Shown here: positions 35,465 to 45,942 of the stretch, in pieces
Layout: every line of letters begins with the position of its first letter
Numbering within the stretch: position 1 is the stretch's first letter
NCBI GenBank assembly: GCA_965223265.1
Contig: OZ244999.1
Coordinates: 5,568,001 to 5,632,000 of the forward strand
Length of the DNA: 64,000 nucleotides
Source: Planctomycetota bacterium
Lineage (GTDB): Bacteria; Planctomycetota; UBA8108; SXIK01
Reading direction: 5' to 3'
Notes under the pieces: model-generated
Seen by the model: only the letters and a program-made list of their open reading frames with translations
Databases searched by the model: none
What the model was told of the DNA's origin: nothing
Made by a program: the position numbers and the translations under genes

Positions 35465-36586
35465 CTACGCTAAATCGACGCGACACGAGGCCACTTGATC
35501 GTCGTCGAGCTCAACACCGAGACCTGGTCCCGACGGCGGCATGGCACGGCCGCCACTGAGCTCAAGCGACTCGGCGAGCAAATCTGTGTCGTAATAAAGC
35601 GGCCCGATGATATCACAAGGGAACTCCTCCGAGCCGATCCCTGATGTCGCCATGGCGAGGTGGATCATCGCCGCGCTCGCCACACCGAGCTCCAGATTGC
35701 TCCCGATCGTGCACGTCGCCCCGGCTGCTTGGGCGACCGCCGCGATCTTCAGCCCGGCGCTGATGCCGCCGCCCTTGCCGACATAGACCGACAGGACGTC
35801 TGCGGCGTCGGCGCGCAAGACCGCCATCGCCTCCTGGAGATTGAAGACGCTCTCGTCGGCCATGATGGGAACGCGCACGCTGCGGCGCACGTCAGCCAGC
35901 CACGTGACGTCGAGCGGCTGAACGGGCTGCTCGGCAAAGAAGATATCGTACTCCTCAAGCTCGCGAATCATCCGGATCGCGACGCGCGGCGACCATCCAC
36001 CATTGGCATCGATGCCGAGGCGCACATCCGGTCCGATCGCCTGGCGAATGGCACGCACACGGGCGATGTCCTCCTTGGGGTCAATCCCGACCTTGACCTT
36101 CATGGCACGAAAACCAACGTCGATCGCCCACGAAGCGATGTCGGCTGCACGTGCTGGATCGGTACCCGAAATCGAAAACTTCGTCGTCACCGCGTCGCGC
36201 GCTGGCCCGCCGAGCAAGCGGTAGAGCGGAAGTCCAGCGACCTTCCCGAGAATGTCCCAAAGTGCCATCTCAAGAGCTGACTTGGTGAACACATGACCGA
36301 CGATCGGCGCTTCGATACGCGCAACGAGTCGTTCGATCTGCAGTGGATCCTCGCCGATCAGGAGGGGCGACAAGACTCGCTCAATGAAGTGCGCCGATGT
36401 GACGTAATCCTCACCGCTCCAGATCGGGTCGCAGGAAACTTCGCCGAGTCCGACGACACCGTCGTCGGTGTGCATCTTGACGAGAAGGAAAGTGTTCTCC
36501 GCGGTGAACTTCTTGCTCGAACGGATCGCACGCTCCGGATTCTTCTTCAGACGTACAGGGATCGTCTCGATGCGGGTGATCTTCAT
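35465..36586 (-). CDS. mandelate racemase/muconate lactonizing enzyme family (enolase superfamily)
   Basis: KSALEMALWDILGK, KVKVG, DANGGW, EQP, DES; start set at MKITRIE. Confidence 0.9.
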   Translation of the reverse strand: MKITRIETIPVRLKKNPERAIRSSKKFTAENTFLLVKMHTDDGVVGLGEVSCDPIWSGEDYVTSAHFIERVLSPLLIGEDPLQIERLVARIEAPIVGHVFTKSALEMALWDILGKVAGLPLYRLLGGPARDAVTTKFSISGTDPARAADIASWAIDVGFRAMKVKVGIDPKEDIARVRAIRQAIGPDVRLGIDANGGWSPRVAIRMIRELEEYDIFFAEQPVQPLDVTWLADVRRSVRVPIMADESVFNLQEAMAVLRADAADVLSVYVGKGGGISAGLKIAAVAQAAGATCTIGSNLELGVASAAMIHLAMATSGIGSEEFPCDIIGPLYYDTDLLAESLELSGGRAMPPSGPGLGVELDDDQVASCRVDLA

Positions 36587-37056
36587 GCGAGGTCTCGAGG
36601 CTGACGGAACAGACCCATCGGGGGCAGCGGGTCTGCTCCAACATAACAGGAAGCTATAGAGCTGGGACAATGAAATGAAGTTCGCGCGCTGGTCCACCGC
36701 GTCGGGAGGAGTCATCGGTGACGGTTTTCTTGGGGAGGAACTGTGGGTGACTGCGAGGGCGAGGGCACCCTTGAGGCCGGCTTTCGTTCGGTTACGATCG
36801 ACAAAACCGCCGCACGCACGCCCGGAGCAGCAGAGCTCTTCTCTCCGTTCGGCTCGATCGCCGCGGTCGCACCGGTGTGCGGGGGCGTTCTCCGAATCCG
36901 TCTCTGCCTCCGACTCTGTCTCTGCGAGCGGCAATGAGTCCGCACGCGAAGCGTCTCGTTTGGCGGCCAGGCAGCAAATGCCCTTGCTGCCTGGCCAAGA
37001 CCGTTTTGGTGCGCTGAGGTTTCCTGAAGTTTTCGAAAGAGTCTATCGCGCGGTTG

Positions 37057-37224
37057 AAGCCAGCCTTCCATACGCACTTTGGGTGAGGAGTCTGTCCTGG
37101 AGTCCTCTGTGCAAGTTGGGGTCCGAACCGTCGTGGTGCTGCACACTCCGTCGCGAACTCCTGGTATGATCGAAGGAAGTTTGGACGCCCTCGATCGGTT
37201 CAGTGCAGAGGTCGCAGTCACCAA
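37057..37224 (-). ncRNA. predicted bridge/seek RNA, copy 1 (boundaries approximate)
   Basis: 3' non-coding region with guide-like matches to the target and donor junctions and internal hairpins. Confidence 0.55.
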
Positions 37225-37291
37225 GACGAGACTTTTCACGCGGGTAGATCCTTCAGAGGTTTTTCAGTCGCCTCGTAATGACACAGGAGGC

Positions 37292-38368
37292 TCAGGCCGA
37301 GCGACGCGTCGAGCGCGAGGCGTTGTAGAGTGGATCGTAGCGCTCGCCGCTGGCCCAGAGGTGATGCATCAGCACGGCGAGCTTTCGTGCCACGGCGACC
37401 GTGGCTTGCTTTTTGCCCCTGGCAGCGCCGCGCTGTCCCAGCCGCTCACCGAAGCGCCTTAGATCGCAGTCCTCCCCGAACGGCCCCAAGATATAATGCG
37501 CGCTGCCGACAAGCAGTCGGCGTAGGTAGCCGTTGCCATACTTCGAAATACGAAGCTGTGGAGTCCTCGACGAAGAGTCGTGCTGCTTCGGGACGAGTCC
37601 GAGATAGGCCCCGACCTTGCGGCTCTTGGAGAAACGCTCCGGGCTCTCCAGGCTCAAGACAAACGCCAGTGCCGTCAGTGGCCCTACGCCGTTGATCTCT
37701 TGAAGGCGCTTGGTCTCTGGGTACTTCTCTGAGAGCGCCTTGATCTCTCTGTCGTAGCTGCGCACCGTGGCGCTAAGCTGTCCGATCTGCTCGAGCATCG
37801 GTAGCACCGCCGCCTCGAGCTCCTCGGGAATATCCTCCCTGACTTTGTAGTGGAAGGCGGCGCTTGAGCAGCTCTTGAGGCGATACCCGCTCGACTTGAC
37901 GAGACCTCGCACGCTGTTGATCAGTGTCGTGCGAGTGCGCACTACCGCGTCACGCGCACGGATGACTGCCAGGTCGTTTTGCGCTGAAAGCTGGCGGTGA
38001 CGAACCGGTCGCAACAGGCGCGGGCTGCCCCAGCCCAGCGTCGCCAGGGTGACGGCGTCGAGCTCGTCGTTCTTGCGACCGTTGGCGGCAAGAGCGCGCC
38101 CAGCGCAGACAGGATTGGCAACGATCACCTCGAAGCCGAGCTCTTCGAGCACCGCACTGACCCACGGCGAGTGCGTGCTCGCCTCGCAGACCACGCGCGA
38201 GCCTCGCGGGAACTCATCAAAGCGCTTAGCGAGCGCCGAGCGTGTCGTCGCCACGCGCTCGTTGGCGAGGATCTCTCCATCGAGCGTTATCGCCACCAAG
38301 TGGCTAAGGCGGTCGCCGAGATCAAGGCCGATAGACAACATACGCTGAGTTTGATTACTTTGGGACAT
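37292..38368 (-). CDS. IS110-family transposase/recombinase
   Basis: IGLDLG, VCEAS, KNDELDA (DEDD); GVGPLTA, AYLGLVP.QHDS, RISKYGN, VAVARKL. Confidence 0.95.
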   Translation of the reverse strand: MSQSNQTQRMLSIGLDLGDRLSHLVAITLDGEILANERVATTRSALAKRFDEFPRGSRVVCEASTHSPWVSAVLEELGFEVIVANPVCAGRALAANGRKNDELDAVTLATLGWGSPRLLRPVRHRQLSAQNDLAVIRARDAVVRTRTTLINSVRGLVKSSGYRLKSCSSAAFHYKVREDIPEELEAAVLPMLEQIGQLSATVRSYDREIKALSEKYPETKRLQEINGVGPLTALAFVLSLESPERFSKSRKVGAYLGLVPKQHDSSSRTPQLRISKYGNGYLRRLLVGSAHYILGPFGEDCDLRRFGERLGQRGAARGKKQATVAVARKLAVLMHHLWASGERYDPLYNASRSTRRSA

Positions 38369-38784
38369 GGTCAGTCTCTCCTTCTGGGCTCAAAGCCCGG
38401 TTAATGTTGCAGATCCTTCTTCGGATACTGCGTGGAGGGACTGGCCTTCTCATCCCATCTCCGTCTCCGTCCGTCTGTCTCTGCCTCCGACTCTGCCTCC
38501 GACTCCGACTCTGTCTCTGCCTTCCATGAGAAGGCCAAAAAGTCAAGAGAGGCGAACGTGGTCGCCGCCCGAGCGCAGCGAGGTCAATCGTTCTCTGCGC
38601 CCAGCGAAGGTCAGTTGTAGGGTGGGAGGCCTGCGCGGCAGGGAGGGGCCCGCGAGCGGCAACGAGTCCGCACGCGAAGCGTCTCGTTTGGCGGCTGGGC
38701 AGCAAATGCCCTTGCTGCCTGGCCAAGAGCGTTTTGGTGCGCTGAGGTTTCCTGAAGTTCTCGAAAGAGTCTATGGCGCGGTTG

Positions 38785-38952
38785 AAGCCAGCCTTCCATA
38801 CGCACTTTGGGTGAGGAGTCTGTCCTGGAGTCCTCTGTGCAAGTTGGGGTCCGAACCGTCGTGGTGCTGCACACTCCGTCGCGAACTCCTGGTATGATCG
38901 AAGGAAGTTTGGACGCCCTCGATCGGTTCAGTGCAGAGATCGCAGTCACCAA
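38785..38952 (-). ncRNA. predicted bridge/seek RNA, copy 2 (boundaries approximate)
   Basis: 5'->3' order TCTCTGCACT, GACGGAG, CCCAACT, ATGGAAG matches target-left, target-right, donor-left, donor-right. Confidence 0.6.
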
Positions 38953-39019
38953 GACGAGACTTTTCACGCGGGTAGATCCTTCAGAGGTTTTTCAGTCGCC
39001 TCGTAATGACACAGGCGGC

Positions 39020-40096
39020 TCAGGCCGAGCGACGCTTCGAGCGCGAGGCGCTGTAGAGTGGATCGTAGCGCTCGCCGCTGGCCCAGAGGTGGTGCATCAG
39101 CACGGCGAGCTTTCGTGCCACGGCGACCGTAGCTTGCTTCTTACCGCGAGCGGCGCCGCGCTGCCCCAGCCGCTCACCAAAACGCCTCAGATCGCAGTCC
39201 TCCCCGAACGGCCCCAAGATGTAATGCGCGCTGCCGACAAGCAGTCGACGTAGGTAGCTATTGCCGTACTTCGAAATACGAAGCTGTGGAGTCCTCGACG
39301 AAGAGTCGTGCTGCTTCGGGACGAGTCCGAGATAGGCCCCGACCTTGCGGCTCTTGGAGAAACGCTCCCGATTCTCCAGGCTCAAGACAAACGCCAGCGC
39401 CGTCAGTGGCCCTACGCCGTTGATCTCTTGAAGGCTCTTGGTCTCTGGGTACTTCTCTGAGAGCGCCTTGATCTCTCTGTCGTAGCTGCGCACCGTGGCG
39501 CTAAGCTGCCCGATCTGCTCGAGCATCGGTAGCACCGCCGCCTCGAGCTCCTCGGGAATATCCTCCCTGACTTTGTAGTGGAAGGCGGCGCTTGAGCAGC
39601 TCTTGAGGCGATACCCGCTCGACTTGACGAGACCTCGCACGCTGTTGATCAGTGTCGTGCGAGTGCGCACTACTGCGTCACGGGCACGGATGACTGCCAG
39701 GTCGTTTTGGGCTGAGAGCTGGCGGTGACGAACCGGTCGCAACAGGCGCGGGCTGCCCCAGCCCAGCGTCGCCAGGGTGACGGCGTCGAGCTCGTCGTTC
39801 TTGCGACCGTTGGCGGCAAGAGCACGCCCTGCGCAGACAGGATTGGCAACGATCACCTCGAAGCCGAGCTCTTCGAGCACCGCACTGACCCACGGCGAGT
39901 GCGTGCCCGCCTCGCAGACCACGCGCGAGCCTCGCGGGAACTCATCAAAGCGCCTAGCGAGCGCCGAGCGTGTCGTCGCCACGCGCTCGTTGGCGAGGAT
40001 CTCTCCATCGAGCGTTATCGCCACCAAGTGGCTAAGGCGGTCGCCGAGATCAAGGCCGATAGACAACATACGCTGTGTTTGATTACTTTGGGACAT
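39020..40096 (-). CDS. IS110-family transposase/recombinase (second copy)
   Basis: same motifs; differs from copy 1 at only about eight residues. Confidence 0.95.
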   Translation of the reverse strand: MSQSNQTQRMLSIGLDLGDRLSHLVAITLDGEILANERVATTRSALARRFDEFPRGSRVVCEAGTHSPWVSAVLEELGFEVIVANPVCAGRALAANGRKNDELDAVTLATLGWGSPRLLRPVRHRQLSAQNDLAVIRARDAVVRTRTTLINSVRGLVKSSGYRLKSCSSAAFHYKVREDIPEELEAAVLPMLEQIGQLSATVRSYDREIKALSEKYPETKSLQEINGVGPLTALAFVLSLENRERFSKSRKVGAYLGLVPKQHDSSSRTPQLRISKYGNSYLRRLLVGSAHYILGPFGEDCDLRRFGERLGQRGAARGKKQATVAVARKLAVLMHHLWASGERYDPLYSASRSKRRSA

Positions 40097-40186
40097 GGTC
40101 AGTCTCTCCTTCTGGGTTCAAAGCCCGGTTAATGTTGCAGATCCTTCTTCGGATACTGCGTGGAGGGACTGGCCTTCTCATCCCAT

Positions 40187-40456
40187 CTCCGACTCTGCCT
40201 CCGACTCCGACTCTGCCTCCGACTCCGTCCGTCTGTCTCTGCCTCCGACTCCGACTCTGCCTCCGACTCCGACTCTGTCTCTGCCTCCGACTCTGCCTCC
40301 GACTCCGACTCTGCCTCCGACTCCGTCCGTCTGTCTCTGCCTCCGACTCCGACTCTGCCTCCGGCTCCGACTCTGTCTCTGCCTCCGACTCTGCCTCCGA
40401 CTCTGCCTCCGACTCCGTCCGTCTGTCTCTGCCTCCGACTCCGACTCTGCCTCCGC
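40187..40456. repeat. CT-rich hexamer array (CTCCGA/CTCTGC/CTCTGT) with a higher-order unit
   Basis: direct reading; the same units occur at 36895-36925 and 38461-38520. Confidence 0.9.
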
Positions 40457-40536
40457 CCGGAAACCCAGAACCCAAGCAGGGAAATGCGTTCGGCGGGCTC
40501 GAACCAGCCGAACGTCGTTTCCCGCCGGCGTTGAGC

Positions 40537-43500
40537 TCAAGCTTCAGGGCACGCGTCGTGCACGTTGCAAGGCAGCCCGTCGGGAGTCGGGTCGGTGCCG
40601 CAAGAGTTCGGCACAGGGAGTGGCCCGTGCGCAGCGAAGAGATGGAGAAGAACAGCGACTCCGTCCGTGACGTTCACGCGTCCATCATCGTTGGCATCGG
40701 CGCTGCGGAGGCACGTGGGAGCTGCGCCGCGGCGGAAGAGATAATTAAGGATGTGCAGGGCATCGTTCAAGTCGACATTCCCACTCGCATCGCTGTCGCC
40801 TCGCCGAAACTCAATGACACCGGCGCCAAATGGAACCTTGACAAACGAGAGCACACGAGGCTGCGCGATCGTCTCAAACTGCTCGTCGAGGTAGGAGATC
40901 ACCGCCTCTTCCGGCGGCTCTCCCGGTCGCGCGTCATCTGGAGCTTCCAGCTCCACGGCGCGAATTCGACGCGACAGAGTCGCCACGTCGACCGGCGGGT
41001 CAAAAATGATCCAATAGCGCACATCTTGATTGTGTCGCTGCGCGCTGTACACCAAGCGAAAATAGTCAACTACGACGCGGCGCACCCCGGCGATCTCTAC
41101 AGCCGCCAAGGTCAAGGCAGCGGGAGCAGATTCGAACGTACTCAACTCGTCGAGAAATCGTTCTCTCAGCTGCAGCATCGTGCCATCCTCCGCCGTCACT
41201 GAGATTTCGAAGAGCGGCAGAGCCTCATAAAGGCAGGAGGAGAATCCCATCACAGGAACGCTGTCGCGCGCTCCGAGTAGCTCGAGCTCGAAGGTCAGGA
41301 ACTCTTCGTCGATCACACGACTGGCAACAATCGGGATTTCTCCACGCCCGCGGTAGTTCAAGTTCGAAAGCGTCAGCGTGAAGAGGTCCCCGGTCGGCAA
41401 GTCGAACTCTTGTCGATATCGAAATCGATAGATCGTCTCGCTCCCGTCACTTATCTCCCGAACCTCGAATCTCCCGTCTTCGCGCGGCGTTGCGACCATC
41501 CGCTCCGGTCCGACCTCGACATGCTCGAAGATGTCGGCAGTGAACGAGCCTTTACCGGCGGGCAGCGACACGGTCCCGGGAGTGAACTCCACCGTCGCCT
41601 TGAACTCATACTCGGTAGCCGGTGGACGCCCGTCACGCTCCTTGCTGAACACCGCACAGGCAATAGCTCCAGTCGGAATCTCGAGCTCAAATACAGGCTT
41701 GCGAGGAGTCGTCGAGGCGATCAGGAAGGGGCGAACCTGTTTGATCGCCAATGAGCCGTCAGCCTCGATCTTGAACTCGAAGTCGAGAAGCACTTGTTCT
41801 GGATCAAAGCCCTCCGGATCGACCGGAAATCGTTCCTCGATGCGCCACATAAGGCTCCCCAGTTCCCGGAGCTGATCGTCGGATAAAACGTTCTGGTCTG
41901 GCCCTACGAGCGAAGAGCGTCGGCTGCGAACGATGCGTACGACTTCACCATCCTCGACTTCGAGCAGGTTCCGTTCGACAAGTTCACCGGGCTGCGGGCT
42001 GACGACGCTCGCCTCACCGATCTGCGCCGCGATCACGAACCGCTGATCATCGACGTTCGCGGGGTTGCCAGTGAACGCAACGCCGTTTGCGGCCTCGTCG
42101 AGGAACGTGCGGCTAACGAGGATTCCCATGGCCGCAAGATCTTGGGGTATCTGAAAGAAACTTCGCTCTTCGTACGCTCGAAACGTCCACAAGCTCGTCC
42201 ATACTTTCTTCAAAGCTCTTTCAACCGTTCGTTCATTAGAACGGAGCGGATCGCAGTGTGAGCCCTCGCGCTCCTCGACATCGATCGTGTCTTGTGCGCA
42301 CACAGAAGTGGACTCGTAGAGGCCTGCGCCGTTGAACTCGAGCTGGTCCTCAACGTTGGACGACGACCGAAAACGCACCATGGTCCGCGTGTCTCCGAAC
42401 ACCGTGGCAATCCGCTCCACGAGCGCGCCGACAAGCTCGGGTGCCACGACGCCGTGATCGCGGGTGAACTCCCGAAACTCGTCCAGCAAACGAAATCTCG
42501 TCTCGGAATCCGTCACGAATTCTGGCGACTCCATCAGATCCCGCAAAAACTGTTCGTAGGTCACCACTTCACCGTTGACGACACGTGTGTTCGAACGCAA
42601 GAACTCAAGGTAGTGATGCATCGGAATAGCGAATCCAACTTCTCGATAGGGCGTGAGCTCGTCGGTCAAAACGCTCTGCAGGCGCGCGAAGTTGGCCGCC
42701 TTGCCGCCAAATCGCGACACCGGCGCGGCCGCTGCGTCCGTATCGATCTCCACCAGCGAATCAAGTACTGAGTAATCGGGGTCGACTACTGGATCGGCCG
42801 CCAACTTCGGTCGTCGGAGTGACCAGAAGGTCTCGGCCTCCTCTATAGAAGCGACGTCGACCATGTAGTCGGAAGCGGTCACCTCGAGCCGCACAAGCTC
42901 ACCTTCGAGCTCGCGGAACTTTTCCGTCGCGCCGTCGACGAACGCGTTCGGTGTACCGCGACGCGCCGTCCGCACCGCGATGTGGCTCAACTCGCCTTGC
43001 ACCTCACCGGTGAGCACACCTCCGACAACTCCTTCGATGTCGCGCGGCGCCTGATCGACAACGACAACATCTTGGAAAGTGAAACGCCCGCTCCGATTCG
43101 CCGCCTCAAACTCTTCAAGGTTAAAGATGCGTACACGTCCGTAGCCGACGGCGAGCGTATACGGCTCGAATGTGAAGCCAGCGCCGCCGTCCGATTCGAA
43201 AATGCGAAACGGCACGCCGGCCCACGTCGCCGCGGCCTCCCGCGCCGCCTGTCCAAGTGGCTGATATGCCAGCGACCCAAGGTGAAACGCGGCACTCAGC
43301 TTCGTGTACACGTCTTCCACTTCGTCCTGGGTCAGCTGCTCGCGAAAATCAAAGCCCGTGTCCGCGAACACCGAGAAAGCGTAGATCGGTGCCCCATCTT
43401 CGATGTGCATCGAGATCGAACCGACGAAGTACTCGCGACTCTGACGCCGGCCGACAAGTTGGTTGTACGTTTCGCGGTCGCTTACGACGTCACCGAACCG

Positions 43501-45942
43501 ATCGGGAAACACTTCGGAAAGAAACTCCTCATGGAGGTCGAAAAGCGTTGCGTTTTGAAAAAGTACCGGGAGCAGCCCCGGCTCCTCCCGCGCTGGAGCT
43601 ACGTACTTTCCGAAGCGCACAGTCAGACGCGATGGCACCGTCAGTGAATAGAACTCTTCGGCAGTGCAGATCTGCTCCAAGAACTCGACTTTCTCTTCGG
43701 TAACGGAACGATTGATAAACACGGTAATGTCACGACCGGTTCGGTTGATGCCAATCACGTCATTGAGTCCATTGCCGTCAAGGTCGCCGACGACGCTGAA
43801 ACGCGGCCCCGCGCCAATGGGAAGCACTCTGCCGAGCGTCAACTCACGATTCGTCGCGTTGGCCAACATCGAGATGCTGTTGCCTTGCTCAGAAACGGTG
43901 ACCACGTCTGCGGTGCCGTCGGAGTTGAGGTCCGCCGTCAGTAGCGAATACGGTGGCGCATGAACAGGAGTCGTGTTTCCAAGAAAGAGACTGCCTCGAG
44001 AGTTCCACACGAACGTCACGCTCGAGATGTTGTTCGCGGTGACGAGGTCCGGGTAGCCATCTTGATCGAAATCGGCCGTACCGACATAGCGAGGTGGCAC
44101 TGGCAGAGGCAACGTCTCTGGATCGCTGTAGGTGTGCTGGCCGCGTCCGCGAACGATCGACAGCTCTGCGGAGTTTTGATTGGCCACCGCGATATCAGCG
44201 TTGCCGTCTTGGTCGAAATCAGCCACGGCTGCGGCAACCGGCCCGTTCCCAACGGGGAGGTCATGGCGTTCGCCGAACACTCCGTCGCCTTGATTCAGGA
44301 GAATGGAAATGGTGTTTGCGGCGACGTTCGAGGTGACCAAATCCGTCCTCATATCGCCGTCAAAATCCCCGAGCGCGATATGAAACGGATTCGCGCCAAC
44401 GGTGTAAACGATTGGCGAGTCGAGGATGCCAGTTCCTTGATTACGGACGAAGAGCAGAATGCCGTCCGCACTCAACGTCACACCGACGACGTCGAGATCT
44501 CCGTCAGCGTCAAAATCATCTGATGTAAGAAAGAAGTAAGTCGCTCGCCGGTAGCGATCCTGAGCCGCGAGAGGTTCGAGAGTGCCGTCACCACGGCCAC
44601 GAAGAAGCGTCAAGCCTTCGTCGTTGTTTCCGGTGAGAATATCGAGATCTCCGTCACCGTCGAAGTCACCAATCGTCGCCGTGTGCGGGTCCCCCGCAGT
44701 CGAGTACTCGACCGGCGGGTCGAACGCTAGGCCCGTGTCGCGACCGACGTCGTTCCAGAACACGGTCACGAGTGGCTGCCCAAAGAAAAGGAGTAGTGCC
44801 TCCTCGAGGCCGTCAACGTCGACATCGACGGCGGCGACGTTGAAGACCCTGCCCTGAAAGTTGGTACGCACTCCACGGTTGAACTGGCCGTCACCACGAT
44901 TGGCGAACACGGCGACTGCAAGCGGCTGAACAAACGAGCCGACGAGATCGAGATCGCCATCGCCGTCGTAGTCGAGCGCTGTCACACCGGTATTGTTTTG
45001 AGCGTCGGCGACGAGGATCGCCGAAGAGACGTACTCCCCTGCTCGGCGATGAAGCAAAACCTCGATCCCGGGCCGTCCTGCCGCGACCAAGTCGTCGGCC
45101 CCGTCGCTGTTTAGATCGCAGACAAGAAGACGTTCGGGTCGCTCGAAGCGAAGAGCTTGCTCGCCTGCGATCTCAAAACTGCCCGAGCCACTGCCGCGCA
45201 GCAGCGACAACGTGGCGTCCGCTCGATTGACCAGGGCGATGTCGAGATCTTCGTCGCCATTGAAATCGACAAGGACGATTCCGCGCGGTTCATTGCCGAC
45301 AGGATACGTCACCGGCGCCGCGAAACCACCCTCACCATTGAGCACGACCGCGACCGCCGCCGTGCTGCGTAGCGTCGCGACGATATCCGAACGTCCATCG
45401 CCGTCGAAATCGCCGACGGCACCAGCTCCGAGGGCGTCGCCAATCGTCACCGTGTTCGTAGGACGCAACCCACCAGAGCCGTCGCCGACGAAGATCTGCA
45501 CTGCTGCATCGTCGAACACTGCGATGTCGGCGTGCGCGTCGGCATTGAAGTCGCCGAGTCGGATGTGTGAGGCGCTTTCCGAAGCTTCAAACTCGGTCAA
45601 TCCGTAGCCTTCGACTTGCGAGCCCGGCCCGCTAAGGCGGACCGACAACACTCCGCGCTGAATAGCGATCAAGTCTGGGGCCTCGTCGCCGTTTAGATCA
45701 GGTGCGAGGACGTCCAATACCCCAAGCGCGGAGTCATTGAACGGGACGTTCGTGAGCGCATGAAACGGGATCGGAGGCACTTCGCAGTCGTCGGGAACGC
45801 CATTGGCGTTGCAATCAATGCTGAATCCGCCCGTGAGGTCTGCGGCGTCGTCAACGCCGTTGCCGTTGCAGTCGGCTGCGCTGCACAAGAGCGGAGCCCA
45901 CAACCAAACGACAAGAAGCGCAGCGAACGGTGGATGCCGCAT
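40537..45942 (-). CDS. 1801-aa exported protein: FG-GAP/VCBS repeats, phospho-His domain, PPDK_N ATP-grasp domain, dockerin-like domain
   Basis: signal peptide; many GDFDGDG..D repeats; GELSHIAVRTARRGTP; GGKAAN; RFRSSSNVED..EFNGAGLYES; KQVRP; FRRGDSDASG. Confidence 0.85.
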   Translation of the reverse strand: MRHPPFAALLVVWLWAPLLCSAADCNGNGVDDAADLTGGFSIDCNANGVPDDCEVPPIPFHALTNVPFNDSALGVLDVLAPDLNGDEAPDLIAIQRGVLSVRLSGPGSQVEGYGLTEFEASESASHIRLGDFNADAHADIAVFDDAAVQIFVGDGSGGLRPTNTVTIGDALGAGAVGDFDGDGRSDIVATLRSTAAVAVVLNGEGGFAAPVTYPVGNEPRGIVLVDFNGDEDLDIALVNRADATLSLLRGSGSGSFEIAGEQALRFERPERLLVCDLNSDGADDLVAAGRPGIEVLLHRRAGEYVSSAILVADAQNNTGVTALDYDGDGDLDLVGSFVQPLAVAVFANRGDGQFNRGVRTNFQGRVFNVAAVDVDVDGLEEALLLFFGQPLVTVFWNDVGRDTGLAFDPPVEYSTAGDPHTATIGDFDGDGDLDILTGNNDEGLTLLRGRGDGTLEPLAAQDRYRRATYFFLTSDDFDADGDLDVVGVTLSADGILLFVRNQGTGILDSPIVYTVGANPFHIALGDFDGDMRTDLVTSNVAANTISILLNQGDGVFGERHDLPVGNGPVAAAVADFDQDGNADIAVANQNSAELSIVRGRGQHTYSDPETLPLPVPPRYVGTADFDQDGYPDLVTANNISSVTFVWNSRGSLFLGNTTPVHAPPYSLLTADLNSDGTADVVTVSEQGNSISMLANATNRELTLGRVLPIGAGPRFSVVGDLDGNGLNDVIGINRTGRDITVFINRSVTEEKVEFLEQICTAEEFYSLTVPSRLTVRFGKYVAPAREEPGLLPVLFQNATLFDLHEEFLSEVFPDRFGDVVSDRETYNQLVGRRQSREYFVGSISMHIEDGAPIYAFSVFADTGFDFREQLTQDEVEDVYTKLSAAFHLGSLAYQPLGQAAREAAATWAGVPFRIFESDGGAGFTFEPYTLAVGYGRVRIFNLEEFEAANRSGRFTFQDVVVVDQAPRDIEGVVGGVLTGEVQGELSHIAVRTARRGTPNAFVDGATEKFRELEGELVRLEVTASDYMVDVASIEEAETFWSLRRPKLAADPVVDPDYSVLDSLVEIDTDAAAAPVSRFGGKAANFARLQSVLTDELTPYREVGFAIPMHHYLEFLRSNTRVVNGEVVTYEQFLRDLMESPEFVTDSETRFRLLDEFREFTRDHGVVAPELVGALVERIATVFGDTRTMVRFRSSSNVEDQLEFNGAGLYESTSVCAQDTIDVEEREGSHCDPLRSNERTVERALKKVWTSLWTFRAYEERSFFQIPQDLAAMGILVSRTFLDEAANGVAFTGNPANVDDQRFVIAAQIGEASVVSPQPGELVERNLLEVEDGEVVRIVRSRRSSLVGPDQNVLSDDQLRELGSLMWRIEERFPVDPEGFDPEQVLLDFEFKIEADGSLAIKQVRPFLIASTTPRKPVFELEIPTGAIACAVFSKERDGRPPATEYEFKATVEFTPGTVSLPAGKGSFTADIFEHVEVGPERMVATPREDGRFEVREISDGSETIYRFRYRQEFDLPTGDLFTLTLSNLNYRGRGEIPIVASRVIDEEFLTFELELLGARDSVPVMGFSSCLYEALPLFEISVTAEDGTMLQLRERFLDELSTFESAPAALTLAAVEIAGVRRVVVDYFRLVYSAQRHNQDVRYWIIFDPPVDVATLSRRIRAVELEAPDDARPGEPPEEAVISYLDEQFETIAQPRVLSFVKVPFGAGVIEFRRGDSDASGNVDLNDALHILNYLFRRGAAPTCLRSADANDDGRVNVTDGVAVLLHLFAAHGPLPVPNSCGTDPTPDGLPCNVHDACPEA

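Follow-up and report, generated by a model that had tools for sequence, protein, structure and literature searches.

An IS1111-type insertion element in hexamer repeat arrays of a Planctomycetota genome and its predicted guide RNA

Elements of the IS1111 type, a subgroup of the IS110 family of insertion sequences, are marked by subterminal inverted repeats of 7–17 bp with short terminal extensions and by a long non-coding region downstream of the transposase gene (PMC11187229; PMC11208160). In the seekRNAs of the IS1111 family, the complement of the top strand is reported to stand 5′ of the complement of the bottom strand (PMC11187229), and the donor-binding nucleotides of many IS1111 orthologues have been placed in a multiloop (PMC11208160). 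Here we describe an element of this type in a stretch of 64,000 nucleotides from a Planctomycetota bacterium (lineage UBA8108, SXIK01; assembly GCA_965223265.1, contig OZ244999.1, positions 5,568,001 to 5,632,000, forward strand). This stretch is called the window, and positions refer to it unless they carry the prefix C1 for the contig. The region 38521-40188 of the minus strand is a complete IS110-family element of 1668 nt, the AG core at both ends included. It is a recently active element of the IS1111 type, the right end of which very probably encodes a predicted bridge RNA or seekRNA of about 200 nt that would guide insertion.

Anatomy and copies of the element

The product of the transposase gene matches the families PF01548 and PF02371 (E = 7e-18 each). 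It scores 195 bits against the NCBIfam equivalog NF033542, "IS110 family RNA-guided transposase", for which the cut-off is 140. The residues D16, E62, D101 and D104 are invariant in an alignment of the window protein with 14 homologues. The C-terminal motif is GLVPKQHDSS; its serine column holds S in 14 of the 15 sequences and T in one, and the residue that follows is G, S or A. The only solved relatives detectable by sequence are the transposases of ISCro4 and IS621, which are distant and match in the C-terminal domain (IS621: E = 3e-10). The DEDD domain, PF02371 together with the motif, the NF033542 match and the site-specific insertion with a short shared core place the element in the IS110 family. 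The 12-bp subterminal repeats, outside which stand the extensions ATGGG (left) and GGA (right), and a downstream non-coding region that is longer than the upstream one (499 nt at the right end vs 92 nt at the left) are traits of the IS1111 subgroup. The initial annotation, which had called the element IS1111-type, is supported by these features.

The genome is a single contig of 9.18 Mb with 60.8% G+C. It carries three full copies of the element, namely the window copy (copy 2), C1:402104-403771 and C1:5870051-5871723 (copy cB), as well as the truncated copy 1. On the transposase strand every copy starts with AG-ATGGG-ATGAGAAGGCCA, and every full copy ends with TGGCCTTCTCAT-GGA-AG. The AG core is found at both junctions of all full copies, in the same type of target and with no longer duplication. 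The window copy and C1:402104-403771 are 100% identical across 1668 nt, and their loci are 5.2 Mb apart. Because two copies at such a distance are identical, the element was recently active. The transposase reading frames of all four copies are intact at 358 aa and keep the DEDD residues.

Copy 1 breaks off at CGCTCGC|AGAGACAG, where GC is common to the break and the flank. Since copy 1 lacks the last 131 nt, the corresponding segment 38521-38651 was considered as a separate repeat. This was rejected, as the two other full copies carry the 131 nt through to the same inverted repeat and the AG|GCAG junction. Three solo right ends elsewhere in the genome (Table 1) are the remains of further insertions; they finish with CATGGAAG|GCAG, likewise in hexamer arrays. 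Four contig sets from one study, compared with 38440-40320, gave fragmented pieces in which neither a circle junction nor an empty site was found. One joint, from 38538 to 39888, occurs among them; it comes from a single contig with a side of only 20 letters.

The right end of 499 nt compares with about 290–330 nt in most homologues. Behind the 100%-identical copy, at C1:403572-404167 (loci L002, L005 and L006), its last 198 nt stand three times head to tail. The junctions in this array are all CATGGAAG|GCAGCAAGG, exactly at the AG core, and AGGCAG is common to the internal site and to the true junction of end and flank. The triplication could have arisen by slippage, by unequal exchange or by action of the recombinase on the internal look-alike site.

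Junction promoters are known in the IS1111-type group, and that of ISEc11 has reportedly been the subject of an earlier study. The initial annotation proposed that an outward-facing TTGACT would meet a GAAGAT formed on circularisation. The first half of this proposal holds, as the -35-like box is in place just inside the right inverted repeat and TTGAC is conserved in 18 of 20 elements, 16–22 nt from the right end. The second half is weak, as GAAGAT, the -10 hexamer formed across the circle junction, agrees with the TATAAT consensus at only three of six positions.

Table 1. Coordinates of the element, its predicted RNA and related features
Feature	Position	Strand	Basis or remark
Element copy 2 (window copy), complete	38521..40188	-	100% identity to C1:402104-403771; 97% to C1:5870051-5871723; junctions
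Transposase gene, 358 aa, DEDD (RuvC-like) and C-terminal Tnp domain	39020..40096	-	Open reading frame, Pfam, NCBIfam
Left subterminal inverted repeat, ATGAGAAGGCCA	40170..40181	-	12 bp; AG-ATGGG before it at 40182-40188
Right subterminal inverted repeat, TGGCCTTCTCAT	38526..38537	-	12 bp; then GGA-AG at 38521-38525
Predicted bridge/seek RNA, ~200 nt, ends approximate	38764..38966	-	Block conserved in right-end alignment; consensus and constrained folds
Helix closing the target loop, 5′ strand	38942..38951	-	Pairs with 38862-38870; 9 pairs, 6 changed on both sides, 99.3% of cells paired
Guide 1, 5′ strand of target loop	38931..38939	-	TCTCTGC, complement of right flank GCAGAGA (7/7 to own flank), and core columns AC
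Guide 2, 3′ strand of target loop	38870..38880	-	GACGG+AG = left flank and core; then 4 handshake-type columns TGTG
Guide 3	38842..38848	-	CCCAACT, 6/7 complement of left-end start AG-ATGGG; weakest of the four
Guide 4	38793..38799	-	ATGGAAG, identical to right-end terminus CATGGA-AG
Outward-facing -35-like box, TTGACT	38541..38546	-	Just inside right inverted repeat
Final 198 nt of right end	38521..38718	-	Placed in ~180 nt that most homologues lack; tandem triplicate at another copy
Hexamer (GNCNGA-type) array with target	40189..40455		Tandem Repeats Finder; further pieces 38461-38520, 36890-36925
Element copy 1, truncated	36924..38460	-	Final 131 nt of right end gone; adjoins copy 2
Copy 1 transposase, intact, 358 aa	37292-38368	-	Open reading frame
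Solo right-end stumps, 38–140 nt	C1:9028002-9028081, 5652439-5652528, 1962301-1962338		Each ends CATGGAAG|GCAG in repeat-array sequence

Target site and predicted guide RNA

On the transposase strand the insertion site of the element reads GACGG-AG|GCAGAGA and lies in arrays of the hexamer GNCNGA. To the left of AG, two copies have GACGG, whereas the window copy has GTCGG and copy cB has GACAG. The right flank is GCAGAGA in both copies with host DNA on that side; one of the remaining copies is followed by the tandem unit GCAGCAA, and the other is without its right end. The left junction is thus ...GACGG/GTCGG/GACAG|AG-ATGGG-ATGAGAAGGCCA and the right junction TGGCCTTCTCAT-GGA-AG|GCAGAGA. From the junctions of all copies follow, on the plus strand of the window, the target TCTCTGC-CT-CCG(A/T)C and the circle donor CCCAT-CT-TCCATG, exactly as they had been reconstructed from the window alone. 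Read on the transposase strand, however, the core is AG; the likeness to the CT core of IS621, drawn in the same annotation, thus depends on orientation.

The three further full or truncated copies and the three solo right ends are all found in hexamer arrays, and none of them in unrelated sequence. Other copies in unrelated sequence had been named as a refutation of the initial reading, and the outcome therefore favours that reading. The GNCNGA arrays are imperfect: a census of the genome gave 92 in-register runs of at least four units at 66 loci. Unoccupied sites number five for the exact 14-mer target and 25 for the relaxed pattern, whereas only about 0.07 occurrences of a random 14-mer would be expected in 9.18 Mb.

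The layout of the predicted RNA comprises a closing stem, a target-binding internal loop and a donor-binding multiloop. The internal loop, closed by the nine-pair helix of Table 1, has guide 1 in the 5′ strand and guide 2 in the 3′ strand, and guides 3 and 4 are set apart by an invariant GCAC/GUGC helix. The consensus fold contains 16 pairs, seven of them with compensatory changes. In this fold 98.5% of the cells are paired vs 89.4% in shuffles, none of which reached the observed value (0/500), and at most 50.4% are paired when the partners are slid. With the guides constrained to be single-stranded, the minimum-energy fold of the region 38750-38975 of the minus strand (-50.6 kcal/mol) shows the closing stem and the target loop, and guides 3 and 4 stand on either side of a hairpin. 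Hairpins lie between the guides, as had been noticed. The guide order is the one reported for IS1111 seekRNAs. The region thus contains target segments for opposite strands that flank the core, donor segments (in the case of guide 3 partly so) and a structure that places the guides in loops, as in a bridge RNA or seekRNA.

The motifs on which the guides are based were found on the minus strand at the positions first given for them: TCTCTGCACT at 38939-38930, GACGGAG at 38880-38874, CCCAACT at 38848-38842, ATGGAAG at 38799-38793 and TTGACT at 38546-38541. Each of the guides that match exactly over 7 nt is expected 0.015–0.034 times in the 487-nt right end, and TCTCTGC, GACGGAG and ATGGAAG did not occur in that order in any of 300,000 mononucleotide shuffles. 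The 6/7 match of CCCAACT is not significant alone. Guides 1 and 2 are also partly complementary to each other (CUCUG/CGGAG, 38870-38939 of the minus strand), because the target is a direct repeat.

In guide 1, the A within TCTCTGC(A)CT had been explained by a bulge of one nucleotide. Two mismatched core positions (AC) are probably the better description, because T38930 is the first pair of the conserved helix and because the core columns AC correspond to CT in 36 of 45 relatives. A bulge is less likely, although register shifts by one base do occur in relatives. Copy cB, which is 97% identical to the window copy, has GACAG both in guide 2 and as its left flank, and the other copies carry GACGG in guide 2. 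This agreement of guide and flank fits guidance by RNA. A chance match would not be unlikely in this case, since both types of unit are common in the arrays.

By analogy with ISEc11 and IS621, we propose that the RNA binds the DEDD transposase. The internal loop would present guide 1 for pairing with the transposase-sense strand to the right of the insertion point (GCAGAGA) and guide 2 for pairing with the opposite strand to the left of it (GACGG and the core AG). The multiloop region would present guides 3 and 4 for pairing with CATGGA-AG-ATGGG, the junction at which the two ends meet in the excised circle. By recombination at the AG core the element would then come to lie at GACGG-AG|GCAGAGA, a site that recurs in the intergenic GNCNGA arrays of the genome. 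The anatomy, the family, the target of all copies, the covariation of guides with DNA and the conserved helices are seen in the sequences; production of the RNA, its binding by the protein and its direction of the reaction are what we infer.

The surroundings of the arrays show additional repeats. The segment 36759-36890 of the window is a dispersed repeat of about 130 nt beside GNCNGA arrays; it has 22 further BLAST matches in the genome and no Rfam match. At several loci another hexamer array (CCCACG/CAAACG) comes after the GNCNGA arrays, so that the microsatellite target seems to belong to a larger, composite repeat of the host. The genome also contains another element of this clade (L057, C1:2060356-2061405, minus strand), which encodes a protein with 43% identity and has an RNA block of its own. 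The columns of its guide 2, ACGAAG+AATG, are the same as its left flank, a (GCAAACGAA)n tandem repeat, together with its left end; its right end is without the CATGG of the inverted repeat. With this element the genome offers two cases in which a tandem repeat is the target. Next to the array in the window lies an open reading frame of 1801 aa (40537-45942, minus strand), in which Asp/Gly-rich repeats and a C-terminal segment resembling calcium-binding dockerin-type repeats can be recognized by eye.

Covariation among homologues and competing readings

A scan of genome contigs yielded 32 related loci with transposases 36–52% identical, and the inverted repeat ATGAG[AT]AGGC was found at both ends in 17 of them. 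In the literature the inverted-repeat sequence turned up only in unrelated primers. A scan of metagenomes yielded 80 further loci; 85 loci were examined for their ends, and both repeats were found in 53. Of the repeat-bearing loci 10 were left out because their ends were reversed or atypical or their flanks short, and five because the RNA anchors were not found. The other 38 were added to an alignment of 18 rows; seven rows with gapped guide columns or short flanks were then removed, and duplicates were merged. The final set contains 45 distinct insertions with 32 distinct guide pairs and 24 distinct guide-2 words. The guide columns were defined from the alignment, independently of the flanks.

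The last five nucleotides of guide 2 agree with the left flank of the same element at 87–98% per position and with the flanks of other elements at 30–42%. For the last four nucleotides of guide 1 and the complement of the right flank the figures are 78–87% (own) and 28–50% (others). Guide 2 matches its own flank at all five positions in 32 insertions and at four in six more; guide 1 matches at all four positions in 31 insertions and at three in four more. The three variable nucleotides of guide 4 are identical to the right end of the same element in 45 of 45 insertions and comprise four variants (GGA, AGA, AAG and GAA), the corresponding figure with other elements being 49–73%. The first three nucleotides of guide 3 agree with the left-end variants at 87–98% (others 58–98%). 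In the relatives, the four columns behind guide 2 are mostly the same as the first letters of the left end (ATGG, ATAG or TTAG). In none of 20,000 permutations of the flanks was the observed sum reached, whether for guide 1, guide 2, the handshake columns, guide 3 or guide 4. The result was again 0/20,000 for guides 1 and 2 when each guide pair was represented by a single element, and for an alignment-free longest-match test with 17 elements. The covariation of guides with flanks, which had been suggested as a check, is thus seen among the homologues: for each of the four proposed guides, the columns change together with the DNA that the guide is expected to pair with.

For many homologues with the right end CATAGAAG (L028-L040, L126-L137) the target is the palindrome GGTGCC-AG-GCACC, and therefore their two target guides are near-identical words. 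In L116, L118 and L127 the right flank starts with GACCTTCTCATG, like a second copy of the right inverted repeat, and is possibly another case of a duplicated right end. Among 101 genomes of relatives, eight (this genome included) match at E <= 1e-40, none with more than 50% identity except for the copies described here, and no close relative with a re-aimed guide was found in them. The best matches reach at most 52% identity in genome contigs, 61% in metagenome contigs and about 34% in plasmid records, where the best match is annotated only as "IS110 family transposase". Among the collections searched, the clade is found only in uncultured-genome and metagenome records.

It is extremely improbable that the right end matches the flanks by chance or through misplaced boundaries and that the site is chosen by the protein alone. 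The matching segments are short (7 nt), and the low complexity of the target makes partial matches easy. However, neither the shuffles nor the permutations reproduced the matches for any guide tested, and the position of the boundaries follows from four copies whose flanks differ and from the conserved ends of 53 loci. This explanation is rejected at the level of the sequence.

Several observations weigh against guidance by the predicted RNA. Folded without constraints, the RNA region pairs guide 1 with guide 2, because the target itself is a direct repeat, and is not better than its shuffles (z = -1.0). A scan of 36500-40600 with Rfam 15 at E <= 1 gave no match. Guide 1 agrees with its flank at two or fewer of four positions in 10 of the 45 insertions, and guide 2 at three or fewer of five in seven; at least five of the misses of guide 1 are register shifts by one base, as judged by eye. 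The permutation figures overstate the significance, because related elements are not independent. The flank GTCGG of the window copy differs from its guide 2, GACGG, at one position. The imperfect guide 3, the unusual core and handshake columns and the result of a promoter scan are further points of this kind and are taken up with the explanations to which they also belong.

The first of these explanations is that the RNA selects only the target, as described for the seekRNA of ISEc11, that the protein recognizes the ends through the subterminal repeats and that guides 3 and 4 are conserved scaffold. The repeat ATGAG[AT]AGGC is kept among transposases that are only 36–52% identical, as a protein-binding site would be. 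Guide 3 is imperfect and its columns covary in part, positions 4–5 being no better than the controls, because the left end hardly varies. The passages of PMC11187229 cited here report only target matches in the short seekRNA. In contrast, the variable part of guide 4 follows the right end of its own element without exception through four variants, the first positions of guide 3 change with the variants of the left end, and donor nucleotides in a multiloop, the layout seen here, are reported for many IS1111 orthologues (PMC11208160). We regard a purely target-selecting RNA as unlikely and retain four guides.

Another explanation, which is quite unlikely, is that a genuine IS1111-type element with a gene for a bridge RNA has copies in this genome that are functionally weakened or dead, so that the guide matches are relics of past activity. 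The AC core and the TGTG handshake columns were found only in the two entries from this genome among the 45 insertions, and they could mean a weakened function. Copy 1 is without its right end, and right ends stand alone as stumps at several places. There are just four copies despite 25 free relaxed target sites, and a scan of 38400-40300 (the linear element) for sigma-70-type promoters gave no sites. On the other side stand the two distant copies without a single difference and the four intact transposase genes. Guide 2 of copy cB differs from that of the other copies and its flank matches, which suggests that guidance worked after the copies had diverged.

The same peculiarities may be read in the opposite sense, although we consider this rather unlikely. 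The copies in this genome would form a natural reprogramming series tuned to the microsatellite, in which variants of the guides (GACGG or GACAG; TCTCTGC or CCTCTGC) track variants of the repeat. The AC and TGTG columns would be adaptive and fit the direct-repeat target, and the tandem 198-nt units would be produced by the recombinase via the internal look-alike site CCAG|GCAGCAA. If this were true, microsatellite arrays would be landing pads that can expand and that coevolve with the guide RNA.

Comparison with known systems

Similar to the IS1111 elements for which seekRNAs have been described (ISEc11, ISKpn4, ISPa11 and ISPst6; PMC11187229), the element has a DEDD transposase, the GL-P----S motif, subterminal repeats and a downstream non-coding region. 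The natural redirection through changes in guide segments is also shared with them (PMC11187229). In contrast to these elements, the protein is slightly longer (358 aa vs 330–350 aa given for the IS1111 family), the motif ends with SS instead of SG, and the right end of 499 nt is unusually long. The target is a hexamer microsatellite and not an attC site, a transposon end or a repetitive extragenic palindromic (REP) sequence. Full-text literature searches gave no report of a microsatellite targeted by an IS110-family element; a relative with a ATGAGAAGGC repeat or tandem-repeat target may already stand in the supplementary tables of PMC11208160 and PMC11187229.

With the bridge RNA of IS621 (PMC11208160) the predicted RNA shares the two-loop logic, with separate target and donor guides, one per strand, and a shared core of two nucleotides. 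As in IS621, columns beside the core match the product junction (handshake guides, PMC13626964), and an outward -35 box could give rise to a promoter once the element is circular. The two proteins have only a distant resemblance. Whereas the RNA of IS621 is located in the left end, that of the present element is located in the right end. The donor guides of the present element are arranged around a hairpin in a multiloop rather than in a simple internal loop, and the handshake-type stretch has four nucleotides in this clade vs dinucleotides in IS621 (PMC13626964). ISPpu9 of Pseudomonas putida (PMC12288879) is likewise an IS110 element in a dispersed host repeat with a separable downstream module that is also found alone. 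It differs in that it targets REP sequences and in that its extra module is a small RNA gene. The solo and tandem copies of the extra right-end module described here may perhaps be simple deletion or duplication products.

The designation "candidate new programmable recombinase", proposed in the initial annotation, is justified only in the sense of a further candidate member of a known RNA-guided group and not in the sense of a new mechanism. Mechanism and element type have been known since 2024, and the present case is a confirmation and an extension rather than a discovery. Particular to it are the clade, the full map of four guides with handshake columns and the microsatellite target. It provides a fully annotated natural predicted bridge RNA or seekRNA from a clade of uncultured genomes and metagenomes. 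The family alignment separates guide, core, handshake and scaffold columns, which is the map needed to test or re-aim the recombinase. The hexamer microsatellite joins REP sequences, attC sites and transposon ends among the repeats that are used by IS110-family elements as harmless landing sites.

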